64,000 bases of DNA from an uncultured Actinomycetota bacterium (GCA_963750755.1 CAVVRW010000005.1:72605-136604), one strand, 5' to 3'. Shown: positions 10,522 through 16,433, numbered from the stretch's first letter. Notes: generated from the letters alone by a model not told the origin. Numbers and translations: made by a program.

Positions 10522-10606
10522 GTCGACCCCTTGTCTTGATGTGATACCCGATGTTGTGGCCAGTACTCGCAAGGCATTGTGCTCGCCCGACCGGCCCGCG
10601 CACATA

Positions 10607-10627
10607 GGGTGAATACCTGATATTTGC
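10607..10627 (+). repeat. Conserved 21-bp box, copy 1 of 3 (GGGTGAATACCTGATATTTGC); candidate operator
   Basis: It matches the boxes at 12962 and 16413 at 19-20 of 21 positions, with about 30 nt of weaker upstream similarity (..GCACAT..). Confidence 0.8.
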
Positions 10628-10650
10628 GTTCACGTCTGCGAACGCAAATA
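10621..10650. repeat. Perfect 11-bp inverted repeat (TATTTGCGTTC-n8-GAACGCAAATA)
   Basis: Seen directly. The left arm overlaps the 3' end of box copy 1. It lies at the junction with the LuxR 3' remnant. Confidence 0.85.
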
Positions 10651-10652
10651 CG

Positions 10653-10730
10653 CACACCCACGTGTGCGCCATCATGACCAAACTCGGCGTCCACAACCGC
10701 ACCCAAGCAGCCGCCTACGCCCAGCAACAG
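10653..10730 (+). pseudogene. Remnant of the 3' end (HTH recognition helix) of a LuxR-family regulator gene
   Basis: It encodes ..THVCAIMTKLGVHNRTQAAAYAQQQ. This is near-identical at the nucleotide level to 15575-15650 (THICAIMAKLGVHNRTQAAAYARQR) of the LuxR gene downstream. No upstream ATPase or TPR part is present. Confidence 0.75.
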
Positions 10731-10751
10731 CTCTCGCCTGGCCGCTCGTCG

Positions 10752-12982: not shown

Positions 12983-12987
12983 CCGAA

Positions 12988-15662
12988 ATGTGGGCCGCCG
13001 GACCGGACATGCTGCGAGCAACCACTGGGACGCGGGAGGCGATGGCCAAGGTGAATCGGTTGCTCGAGCGCGAGACCGCGCTTGCCGAGCTCGATCGTTG
13101 CCGGCGGGCCGCAGCACGAGGTGGACGGATCGTGTTGGTGCGTGGTGAGGCCGGGGTCGGCAAAACCACGGTGATCGCCCGTTTTTCTGAAGGGCTCGGG
13201 CTAAGCACGCCGGTGGTGCGCGGCTGGTGCGATGCGCTCGCCACCCCGCGCCCGTTGGGCCCGCTGATCGACATGCTCGACGGTGTTGCCGGGGAGCGGG
13301 CGGCCCGGGTGCGCGCGGCGATCGACGCTGGCGATGCGGAAACGATCTATGCCCGGCTGGTCGACCTCTTGGGCGACGGCGCCCGGTGGGTGGGGGTGAT
13401 CGAAGACCTGCACTGGGCCGACGGCGCCACCCTGGATCTAGTGCGTTATCTGGCCCGGCGCATCGAGGCGCTGCCGGTGCTGTTGGTGGTGTCCTACCGC
13501 GACGACGGAATCGGCGCGCTGCACCCGCTGGCGGTATGGCTGGGTGATCTGGCCACCTCCGCGGCGGTGACGCGGATCGCGCTGAATGCGCTGAGCGCGG
13601 CGGCAGTAGGGCAGCTGGCGGTCGGCAGCGGCGTCAACGCCCAGGAATTGCATCAGATCACCGGAGGTAACCCGTTTTTCGTCACCGAAGTGCTGGCCGC
13701 GGGCCCGGACGCGCTGGCCGGGGGCGGCTTGCCGCGCAGTGTGTCGGAGGCGGTGGTGGGCCGGCTGGCGAGGCTGTCGTCGTCCGGCCGCCGAGACCGC
13801 GGAGGCCGCTGCGGTGTGCGGGCCGCGATCCAGCCCGATGCTGATTGAGGCGGTGTGCCCGGCGGCCGGCGTCGCGTTGGCTGAATGCCAGCAGGCCGGG
13901 GTGCTGATCGCCGACGCGGACACGGTCCGTTTCCGCCACGAGCTGGCCCGGCGCGCGACCGCCGCGCAGATCCCCGACTATCAGCGCCGCATGCTGCACA
14001 AGAAGGTGCTGGCGGTGTTGGCCGAGCCGCCGATCGACCCGAACACATTGGCGGCGTTGGCATTTCACGCCGAGCAGGCCGGCGATACCGACGCGGTGAT
14101 CTGCCACGGTCCTGCCGCTGCCGACCGGGCCGCGGCACTAGGCGCCCATCGGGAAGCCGCCGAGTTGTATGCGCTGGTGCTGCGGCACGGGGACAACAGC
14201 CCGAATGTTCAGAAGGTGCTGTGGCTCGAGCGCCACGCCTTCAGCAGTTATCTGTGCGGGTCGACGGCCGCCTCCGAGCGGTCGTTCCGTGACGCCATCG
14301 CGTTACGCCACGAGCTGGGTGATCGGCTCAGCGAGGGCGACGACCTTCGCTGGCTCTCGCACATGCTGCTTCCGCTGGGCAGCGTCGCCAAGGCCGCCGA
14401 AGCAGGACTGGCGTCGTTATCTGTGCTCGACGAGATCGGCCCCACCCCACAGCTGGCCTGGTCGCTGATCAACATGGCTACGCTGGCCATCTTCAGCTAC
14501 GACCCGGCGTGCGCGGATTACGCGGCACGCGCAATCACACTTGGCACCCAACTCGATGATCCAGCCGTGGTGCTGCGGGCCAGGTGCTATCCACCGCTGT
14601 CCGCCGTAGCGCGCAGCGACACCGGTTGGGATGACTTGGAAAAGGCGTGGCGCGATGCCATAACCACCGAAGGAATGTCGGAGCATGCCGGTATCGCCAG
14701 CGTGATGCTGTGCTGGTTCGCCGCGCTCCACCACCACGAGCGCGCTGAGGACTACATCCACGAATCGTCTGTTTTCTGCGGCGCCCATGATTTGGGCACA
14801 TTCAACTCAGTTGTGGCCGGCTCGGGCGCCCTGGTCGAATTGCACCGCGGGAATTGGGCCAACGCACTCGCCTGCGCCGAGGATGTGCTCACTAGGTCGG
14901 GCATGTCACCGTCGCACCGAATCCTGCCGCTGATCAGCGCGGCGTTGGTCCGCGCGCGGCGCGACCAGCAACCGGTCGCCGAACTGTTGGACGAGGCCCT
15001 CGCGATGGCCGACGACCTGTTTCGACTGGGACCGGTGTGGGCCGCCCGCGCCGAGGCCGCCTGGCTGGCCGGCGACAACGACACCGCCCGCGCCGAGGCG
15101 CAGGCCGGACTCCGGGCGGCCGCCGCCAACGCCGACCCGTGGCTGGTCGAGCCACTTACAACGCTGGCTGTGGATGTCGGGGGGCAGGCTCAACACCGCG
15201 CTCGTCAGCGAGCCGCTCACTCCCTACCACCTCGAGATCCGCGGGGAGTGGCAAACCGCCGCCGCTCAATGGACGCGCCTGGAATGCCCCTACGACGCGG
15301 CCATCGCTCAACTCGGTGGCGGCATCGACGCTGTCCAAGCCGCCCTGGAGACCTTCCGGCGACTAGGCGCCCGCGCTGCGGCCCGTCGCGCCCGGCAGCG
15401 CCTCGCCCAACTGCGCGGACGCGATCCAGACCTCCGTCGCAAACAGACCAGCACCGACCCTCACGGCCTCACCAAACGCCAACGCGACGTCCTCGATCTA
15501 CTCGCAGCGGGCCACAGCGACGCCCAAATCGCCGCCGCCCTCTATATCAGCCGCAAAACCGCCAACACCCACATCTGCGCGATCATGGCCAAACTCGGTG
15601 TCCACAACCGCACCCAAGCCGCCGCCTACGCCCGGCAACGGCACACTGCGCCACAAGCCTGA
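12988..15662 (+). pseudogene. LuxR-family regulator with N-terminal AAA/STAND ATPase, TPR-like middle region and C-terminal HTH; interrupted by two frameshifts
   Basis: It is split over three track ORFs in three frames. ORF 12988..13848 carries the Walker A motif GEAGVGKTT. ORF 13739..15736 carries the middle region. ORF 15174..15662 carries the LuxR HTH LTKRQRDVLDLLAAGHSDAQIAAALYISRKTANTHICAIMAKLGV. Frame changes lie near 13775-13795 and 15145-15165. Confidence 0.85.
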
Positions 15663-15707
15663 CACGAGATTTCCGGAATGGCGGCGAAGCGGAACAGCCG
15701 TCGTGCG

Positions 15708-16298
15708 CTAAAAAAGGTTGCTCAAGATGTCGGTGAGTAAGTTGCCGCCGGTAGCCGCGGTCGAGTCCAAGCCGTTGCCGAAGACCTCCGCGAAGTCGAA
15801 ATTGCCGTTTCCGGCCTCGGCGACGCTGCCTGTGCTGCTGAACGGGTCAAAGTTCACCGCGACGTCGTTGGCGCTGGGTGCGCCGCCGAGGAAGCCGGCG
15901 AAGGCATCGGTCTTCAAGCCGAAGGCGGACGCGAAATCGCCGCTACTCAAAGTGCTTCCAGAGCCTCCGGCGGCGGCGTGGCTGCCGATACCGTTGGCAA
16001 ATGCGCTGTCGAAGTTACCGTCTCCCGACTGGGCAATGCTGTTGGTGCCGCCCGCAAAGGCGGTGTCGAACTGGCCGGAGTTGGCGCTGGCGAAACTCCC
16101 AGAACCGATGGCGATCGCGAAGTCATTCGTGCCCGACTGAGCGGTCGCGCCGGTGCCGGAATGGAAAATATCGATGCCGTCGAACGAGATGTCGATGGGA
16201 TCGGCCGAGGCGATCCCAGGCGATGCGGCCAGCGTCGCCCCGATGCCCAGCCCGATAGCCAGCCCGCCGAGCCGACCGATCGCTTTAGCGTATTTCAC
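15708..16298 (-). CDS. Exported Gly/Asn/Phe/Asp/Ala repeat protein (possible beta-solenoid)
   Basis: 196-aa ORF with signal peptide MKYAKAIGRLGGLAIGLGIGATLAASPGIASA. It is followed by units of about 18-19 aa of the type GxGNFDxAFAxG. Confidence 0.65.
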   Translation of the reverse strand: MKYAKAIGRLGGLAIGLGIGATLAASPGIASADPIDISFDGIDIFHSGTGATAQSGTNDFAIAIGSGSFASANSGQFDTAFAGGTNSIAQSGDGNFDSAFANGIGSHAAAGGSGSTLSSGDFASAFGLKTDAFAGFLGGAPSANDVAVNFDPFSSTGSVAEAGNGNFDFAEVFGNGLDSTAATGGNLLTDILSNLF

Positions 16299-16412
16299 GG
16301 GTCTCTCCTATCTGCCGTTTGCGGGTGCGGCCCCAGGTTGCGGACAAATCTGCGTGCCGCATTGCGGAGCACTAACTCAGCACTGTGCTGGCCGGACGGT
16401 TGTCGGCACAGC

Positions 16413-16433
16413 GGGTGATTACCTGATATTTGC
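16413..16433 (+). repeat. Conserved 21-bp box, copy 3 of 3 (GGGTGATTACCTGATATTTGC)
   Basis: See copy 1. It lies 115 nt upstream of the minus-strand start at 16298. Confidence 0.8.

Follow-up and report, generated by a model that had tools for sequence, protein, structure and literature searches.

Why should one short sequence recur three times, always in the same orientation, beside genes for exported proteins and LuxR-type regulators? The question is raised by a stretch of 64,000 nucleotides (nt) from an uncultured Actinomycetota bacterium (GCA_963750755.1 CAVVRW010000005.1:72605-136604), which was analysed over its whole length and is referred to here as the window. The sequence, the box GGGTGAWTACCTGATATTKGC, lies at 10607-10627, 12962-12982 and 16413-16433, in each case on the plus strand and without a mismatch, and no further site was found in the window at up to three mismatches. 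The exact pattern scan gave precisely the three copies of one orientation that an earlier note on this DNA had listed, against a chance expectation of 0 in 100 dinucleotide shuffles. About 30 nt of weaker similarity had been described 5' of each box, and this similarity is evident both from alignment and from a repeat search of the window, which reported a 54-nt family with 70-76% identity. The distances of 86, 251 and 115 nt from the boxes to the starts of the minus-strand genes are correct, and the description of the right-hand side (a LuxR remnant at copy 1, a LuxR gene with two frameshifts at copy 2, none at copy 3) agrees with our tblastn comparison. The near-palindrome GGTGATTACC is also present and can be refined, as it forms the centre of a longer palindrome of 18 base pairs (bp) that begins 3 nt 5' of the box.

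The comparative analyses described below point to a probable answer, namely that the box belongs to a 52-bp module, present in environmental mycobacteria, whose core is an operator of LAL (large ATP-binding LuxR-type) regulators, proteins with an AAA_16 ATPase domain, helical repeats and a GerE helix-turn-helix. A dimer of GerE-type domains would bind the 18-bp palindrome, and the bound activator, centred near -43.5, would stand in for the weak -35 element of a leftward promoter driving genes for small proteins that are secreted or belong to the cell envelope. With a LuxR gene on the right-hand side, the site would fall inside the LuxR leader or promoter region, so that the regulator would also act on its own gene, probably as a repressor. 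The three copies in the window would represent a duplicated unit of module plus LuxR gene, in which the LuxR gene was subsequently deleted internally at copy 1, wholly lost at copy 3 and frameshifted twice at copy 2. The earlier note had already proposed that the box is an operator or promoter module shared by a duplicated family of regulators and targets, and the association with LuxR genes, the association with secreted-protein genes, the conservation between orthologues and the co-variation with the recognition helix all support this proposal. Its view that all regulator copies are dead is right for the window itself; relatives with intact LuxR orthologues were sought and found (for example, an 870-residue orthologue in the locus designated L010), and the box is conserved 5' of the orthologous genes of relatives, so that the refuting case named in the earlier note, a lack of such conservation, did not arise.

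An alignment of 19 copies resolved the box as the 3' part of the 52-bp module, which comprises a hexamer A.T.TG, a 22-bp spacer ending in GC.CA, the 18-bp palindrome ATCrGGTrA-TyACCyGAT (the hyphen marks the centre) and a short tail; the variable position W of the box as first described falls at the palindrome centre. In total, 24 module copies were recovered from 14 loci in mycobacterial genomes and metagenomes by a loose geometric search of about 305 kb of locus DNA. The hexamer and the palindrome are separated by 22 bp in 21 of the 24 copies and by 21 bp in the other three, and no 18-bp site of the same type was found outside a module in the searched loci. The inverted repeat is perfect in L065 and at position 13189 of L069, and at least 14 of its 18 positions are kept elsewhere. 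The left arm CAT(C/G) is invariant in the 19 aligned copies save for window copies 1 and 3, which carry CATA (a unique C-to-A change in the 10604-10606 region) and CAGC (a unique T-to-G change in the 16410-16412 region), respectively; both substitutions weaken the palindrome. A second inverted repeat 5' of the palindrome, TGTGC-N17-GCACA, was considered and dropped, as it does not occur in copy 2 and was not picked up by RNAalifold.

The relatives were found in several ways. A scan of 185,579 species genomes with the exact box pattern returned three actinobacterial metagenome-assembled genomes (L010, L011 and L013) and one chance match, and a scan of metagenomes, in which about 45 matches were due to chance, contributed L025, L056 and L018, the last being identical to L010. 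Relaxed searches inside these loci revealed more copies at one to three mismatches, with at most two exact box copies per contig, or three when a variant with one or two mismatches is included. Most of the 17-18-mer matches in the virus, genome and metagenome collections were chance occurrences in unrelated, AT-richer DNA, the genuine ones being confined to the six loci just named; the nine matches on virus contigs were judged to be chance because they have neither the upstream module nor flanking similarity. The region is syntenic from dnaK to an amino-acid permease gene. A protein search with the intact regulator of L010 uncovered a very large mycobacterial family (4,901 of the 8,000 scored candidates were relatives at E <= 1e-30), in which intact LAL orthologues are 865-890 residues long. 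Further LAL loci were taken from M. nativiensis (L064), Mycolicibacter terrae (L065) and several metagenomes.

Every module copy lies either just 5' of a LAL LuxR gene or 5' of a minus-strand secreted-protein gene adjoining such a regulator, and a regulator gene with a GerE helix-turn-helix adjoins the site in all 14 loci. The palindrome precedes the start codon in 11 of the 14 LuxR genes of the family that were examined (window, L010, L011, L013, L025, L064, L065, L066, L069, L071 and L077), at a distance of 24-70 nt (83 nt in L077); in L067 and L070 the palindrome is missing from this position and occurs at another place in the locus, and L068 lacks it altogether. The left neighbour is a minus-strand gene for a secreted or envelope protein for nearly every copy, the exceptions being L013b (dnaK, 450 nt away) and the second L077 copy (a plus-strand LuxR fragment). 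These left-hand genes belong to diverse families: the 151-residue and 131-residue proteins, Gly/Asn/Phe/Asp-rich and Cys/Pro-rich proteins, a 19-kDa lipoprotein, Ag85-like esterases, PLL-type propeller proteins, and Gly-rich and Thr-rich repeat proteins. The right neighbour, on the other hand, is a LuxR gene, a permease gene or merely the 3' end of a convergent gene. Five independent instances of the last arrangement were found (window copy 1 with L010a, L025a with L056, L069 13189, L070 9301 and L067 5697), in which the minus-strand secreted-protein gene to the left is the sole candidate target. The only module of L071 separates an intact LuxR gene from a divergent three-gene operon, which encodes a 131-residue protein, a PLL/M23 propeller protein and, last, a 148-residue homologue of the window's 151-residue protein; this arrangement has an ancestral-like layout.

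The module copies that are not followed by a LuxR gene are conserved between orthologues, with 79-94% identity, compared with 35-82% (median 56%) in the intergenic flanks and 59-85% in adjacent coding DNA. Copy 1 shares 91% identity with the orthologous L010 copy, whereas its two flanks share 70% and 52%; copy 3 is 79-83% identical to the copies of L010, L013 and L066, which are 91-94% identical to one another. These values bear on an alternative explanation, in which the module is the promoter or leader of the LuxR gene itself and the copies without a LuxR gene are functionless, decaying relics. Such relics would fit the LuxR remnant after window copy 1 and the truncated LuxR N-terminus after L011a, and also the resemblance of non-LuxR copies of the NTHVC helix class to LuxR-type copies, including retention of the tail ATT.GC. 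In addition, GATATT, at the palindrome's end, could serve as a -10 element for rightward transcription, with a leader of about 20 nt containing a Shine-Dalgarno sequence in L010. However, the non-LuxR copies exceed both their flanks and the adjacent coding DNA in orthologue conservation, and the permease-side copy has been retained in four genomes. Moreover, the sites of L070, L067 and L069 13189 stand in front of secreted-protein genes with no trace of LuxR, and their spacers have diverged while the geometry is the same. We therefore consider it unlikely that these copies are relics and return to the operator of LAL regulators as the preferred reading.

If the palindrome is an operator of this kind, its sequence might be expected to follow that of the regulator, and the two do vary together. 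The helix KT.NTHVC is paired with ATCrGGT..ACCyGAT at nine loci (window, L010, L011, L013, L025, L064, L065, L066 and L071), the helix KTANRHVG with ATGrGG..CCyCAT in L067, L069 and L070 (in L069 at both the LuxR-side and the target-side site), and the helix KTASNHVS with ATGAGGAAATTTCCCTAT (half-site ATGAGGA) twice in L077. The match between helix and half-site holds without exception in 13 loci, which amount to three independent classes only, and the palindrome changes between these classes preserve the symmetry of the repeat. The C-terminal domain of the regulators is homologous to the DNA-binding domains of LiaR, VraR, GerE and DosR, and the helix residue that varies (T, R or N) corresponds to one making base contacts in models of GerE-family domains on DNA (PMC9263151).

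It is also conceivable that another, unlinked transcription factor binds the palindrome and that the LAL regulators are merely among its targets. The conservation of the GC.CA motif in the spacer and of the tail, which goes past the needs of a dimer site, would suit such a factor, as would the nearly intact boxes beside dead LuxR genes in the window. Against this, the site is strictly co-located with LAL genes at 14 loci, the three site variants match the three recognition-helix classes, and dimers of the GerE type typically recognize inverted repeats of this form (18 bp with a 4-bp centre). An unlinked factor thus appears quite unlikely to us, and binding by the adjacent LAL protein is the interpretation carried forward here.

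With regard to the promoter, three hexamer positions are invariant and read A2, A4 and T6 on the minus strand (CACAnT, CAGAAT or TAACTT). We infer from this pattern that the hexamer may be the -10 element of a leftward promoter, in which case the palindrome would occupy -35 to -52, with its centre at -43.5; LuxR-type activators that replace a -35 element bind around that position (centre near -42.5). The order in L067 is palindrome, 22 nt, TAACTT, 6 nt and the ATG of a 101-residue secreted protein, a spacing that would be exactly as expected for a leaderless mycobacterial mRNA. Readings of the module as SigF-like, ECF-like or CRP-like, made by eye, were dropped because the spacing or the half-sites did not fit.

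Several observations weigh against a LAL operator with a leftward promoter. The sequence logic for the leftward direction is weak, because the invariant bases read nAnnnT on both strands; the minus-strand hexamer mostly starts with C rather than the T favoured in mycobacterial -10 elements, and a generic scan for sigma-70 promoters and terminators called nothing at any box copy. The link between copy 2 and its target is the weakest of the three because the predicted 5' untranslated region would be long, at about 213 nt. The module is asymmetric, and its spacer (including GC.CA) and tail are conserved as well, so that something more than a simple dimer site is constrained. The non-LuxR copies mostly derive from duplicated LuxR upstream regions, and part of their similarity is therefore due to descent. 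Finally, the three helix classes also differ in host lineage, and the co-variation could thus partly reflect phylogeny or an unseen factor evolving in parallel.

The LuxR-type copies carry about 80 nt of additional conserved sequence on the 5' side, a distal block that consists of TANNNT followed by CCGCATCCTGATCCGATGnCGGTGTGCTGAT.GCCGTGG..GCCGCCCGCCACGCT and is found in the window, L010, L011, L013, L025, L064, L065, L067, L069, L070 and L071. T1, A2 and T6 of TANNNT are kept in 11 of 12 cases and the three middle bases vary, a pattern suggesting that this element is probably the -10 of the LuxR gene itself. The block has been kept even in L067 and L070, where the LuxR gene has no upstream palindrome. 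It often holds a four-codon open reading frame, M-x-V-C-stop, which is probably not translated because the ATG is missing in 3 of 11 copies. The distal block may be a leader RNA or the site of a second regulator.

These features invite the question of whether the palindrome works as a hairpin at the RNA level, within a long and structured leader at the 5' end of the LuxR transcript, as an attenuator or riboswitch-like element, rather than a site at which protein meets DNA. The conserved TANNNT, about 135 nt 5' of the box, would place the whole module inside the LuxR leader; the pairing survives G-U, A-U and G-C changes and two double changes, with G-U tolerated on the plus strand only, and the hairpin energies range from -4.5 to -13.9 kcal/mol. 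However, RNAalifold shows this 7-bp stem alone, with a covariation term near zero (+0.02, and -0.61 over full leaders), and a large conserved RNA fold across these leaders was rejected for its weak covariation. An Rfam scan of the window matched two tRNAs only and nothing at the boxes. Moreover, copies without the distal promoter are still conserved, the double changes occur at both of the sites in a single genome and follow the helix of the protein, as those of an operator would, and the fixed 22-bp distance to the hexamer is a trait of DNA geometry. Taken together, an RNA element at the palindrome seems improbable, and a protein-bound operator remains our preference. As for the dispersed repeat or miniature transposable element named as an alternative in the earlier note, three same-orientation copies within 6 kb might suggest one, but we give it almost no credence, since the exact box occurs in 3 of 185,579 species genomes apart from the chance match, there are neither terminal inverted repeats nor target duplications, and all copies belong to LuxR loci, where their placement with respect to the genes is fixed.

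A wider and more speculative possibility, which we put forward tentatively, is that environmental mycobacteria hold many paralogous cassettes, each pairing an ATP-dependent LuxR-type sensor with small secreted proteins, with a specificity code that would relate helix position 5 (T, R or N) to half-site position 3 or 7. The LuxR leader of about 135 nt (TANNNT through CCGCATCCTGATCCGATGnCGGTGTGCTGA) would then add a second layer, either RNA-based or bound by a factor.

Table 1. Position and character of the module copies and neighbouring features in the window
Feature	Position	Strand	Description
Module copy 1	10576..10627	+	Hexamer ATTGTG 10576-10581 (minus-strand CACAAT), 22-bp spacer, palindrome ATAGGGTGAATACCTGAT 10604-10621, tail ATTTGC
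Module copy 2	12931..12982	+	Hexamer AGCGTT 12931-12936, 22-bp spacer, palindrome ATCGGGTGATTACCTGAT 12959-12976, tail ATTGGC
Module copy 3	16382..16433	+	Hexamer ACTGTG 16382-16387 (minus-strand CACAGT), 22-bp spacer, palindrome AGCGGGTGATTACCTGAT 16410-16427, tail ATTTGC
Distal block, LuxR-type copy only	12857..12930	+	TACGGT at 12857-12862 (fits TANNNT), then conserved leader-like sequence; from alignments
LAL-type LuxR pseudogene	13042..15662	+	AAA_16 ATPase, helical repeats, GerE helix-turn-helix (Pfam)
Second LuxR gene remnant	10647..10745	+	Last ~30 codons only (..NTHTHVCAIMTKLGVHNRTQAAAYA..); rest deleted directly after module copy 1
151-residue secreted protein	10066..10521	-	Signal peptide; no Pfam family; predicted target of module copy 1
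Gene pair: 79-residue protein (12472-12711) and 569-residue PLL-type beta-propeller protein (10752-12461)	10752..12711	-	Predicted target of module copy 2
196-residue Gly/Asn/Phe/Asp-rich secreted protein	15708..16298	-	Predicted target of module copy 3; predicted 5' untranslated region ~77 nt
AnsP-like amino-acid permease	16550..18058	+	Pfam; right neighbour of copy 3

Within the window (Table 1), copy 2 sits 59-68 nt 5' of the start of the LuxR pseudogene. When compared with the intact L010 orthologue by tblastn, this gene aligns over 13051-15650 in three frames, which implies two frameshifts (near 13777-13813 and 15148-15156). Its domains still reveal the LAL architecture (AAA_16, E = 2e-19; GerE, E = 3e-18), and its recognition helix reads KTANTHICAIM. 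At copy 1, 19 codons of a C-terminal helix-turn-helix are recognizable at 10647-10703, and no LuxR-like sequence was found 3' of copy 3 in a comparison with the intact L010 orthologue. A perfect 11-bp inverted repeat, TATTTGCGTTC ... GAACGCAAATA, at 10621-10650 extends into the 3' end of box copy 1 on one side and borders on the LuxR remnant on the other; as it has no counterpart in the orthologous L010 copy, it may mark a deletion junction.

As to the predicted targets, the gene for the 151-residue protein would have a 5' untranslated region of about 48 nt, and its family comprises 114 members, of which those with a named source are all from Mycobacterium or Mycolicibacter. The 569-residue propeller protein has 144-nt blade repeats in its gene and is similar to the PLL/M23 propeller proteins of L064 and L066. 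Orthologues of the 196-residue protein occur in L010, L013 and L066, with the module upstream in every one. Copy 3 lies between the gene for this protein and the permease gene, and the permease gene is unlikely to be the one under control; the LuxR gene of L064 and that of L071 are directly followed by the permease gene with no module between the two. The open reading frames of the three target genes are still intact, and both LuxR copies are inactivated. The arm substitutions in copies 1 and 3 hint at relaxed constraint after loss of the regulator, albeit from a small sample. The regulator family is rich in paralogues, and the window sites could still be used in trans by one that is encoded elsewhere in the genome and shares the recognition helix.

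Distant homologues of the 151-residue protein were also encountered at four further loci (L073-L076). There (about 9768-10001 and 14294-14455 in L074), such a homologue is divergent from a regulator of about 1,107 residues with guanylate-cyclase, STAND ATPase and GerE domains, and two paralogues of this cyclase-STAND-GerE regulator have a conserved upstream sequence of their own in common. These loci are uninformative on the box, as the regulator family is different and the intergenic sequence unrelated; they suggest that the pairing of regulator and secreted protein may extend past the LAL subfamily.

Other features of the window lie apart from the module. The last 43 nt of a tRNA gene (39988-40058; repeat 40018-40060) are duplicated exactly at 43949-43991, 3.9 kb downstream, and the stretch between the two repeats holds, both on the minus strand, a transposase that has an rve integrase core (40102-41154) and a gene for a GGDEF-EAL protein (41430-43766). 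The arrangement looks like an element inserted at the tRNA. At 33700-38300, three paralogous segments of about 1.6-2.1 kb, with 72-87% identity and Gly-rich coding repeats on the minus strand, probably constitute a tandemly arranged family of PGRS-like, glycine-rich proteins. At 26680-27320, an Ala/Pro/Lys-rich repeated peptide (..PVKGLGIAGGAKRPG..) is encoded by tandem repeats of about 132-165 nt.

To our knowledge, almost no mycobacterial LAL regulator has a known binding site or target, and our search of the literature on the motif, mycobacterial LAL regulators and Rv0890c found no prior description of the motif or of an operator for this subfamily. The present analyses provide a concrete candidate operator with a fixed geometry of the putative promoter for numerous mycobacterial LAL regulators, together with candidate targets among small secreted proteins, lipoproteins, Ag85-like esterases and lectin-type propeller proteins, and the correspondence between helix and operator could serve in predicting the regulons of many paralogues. 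The window itself appears to be a regulator-target unit caught in the middle of decay, with dead regulators, intact targets and operators that are starting to gather mutations. The mechanism we propose is a standard one, a palindromic GerE-type operator beside its targets; it is the motif for which no prior description was found.

Among known systems, the lux-box operators of LuxR/TraR-family activators are inverted repeats of 18-20 bp, centred near -42.5, that replace the -35 element. The module resembles them in having an 18-bp inverted repeat, predicted here to serve a GerE-type helix-turn-helix, with a putative centre at -43.5 by a poor -35 element and a regulator gene adjacent to and divergent from the target. 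However, the regulator here is an ATPase-type LAL protein of about 870 residues in a mycobacterial host and not an acyl-homoserine-lactone receptor, and the position relative to the transcription start is a predicted one. The DosR (DevR) boxes of Mycobacterium tuberculosis are of the GGGACTnnAGTCCC type, and the operator of PimM, a PAS-LuxR regulator of Streptomyces, is CTVGGGAWWTCCCBAG. These proteins are likewise actinobacterial GerE-type regulators that use palindromes with a G-rich half-site and a short AT-rich centre, and the L077 variant GGAAATTTCC looks similar; the half-site here is nevertheless ATCrGGTrA, the sensor is an ATPase where theirs is a receiver or PAS domain, and the homology to the DosR DNA-binding domain is modest (E = 3e-9).

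In overall architecture, the regulators are closer to MalT and to the LAL regulators of Streptomyces antibiotic clusters, with an ATPase of the AAA_16/STAND kind at the N-terminus, helical repeats and a GerE domain at the C-terminus, and those proteins usually activate adjacent genes. MalT boxes are asymmetric decamers in direct or inverted arrays, whereas a single symmetric 18-mer is present here and small secreted proteins, not catabolic or biosynthetic operons, are the predicted targets. The closest relatives of the C-terminal domain whose structures have been solved with DNA are LiaR and VraR (E = 3e-13), in which the recognition helix KTVKTHVSNIL aligns residue for residue with KTVNTHVCAIM; these two are Firmicutes response regulators of cell-envelope stress and act on other operators.

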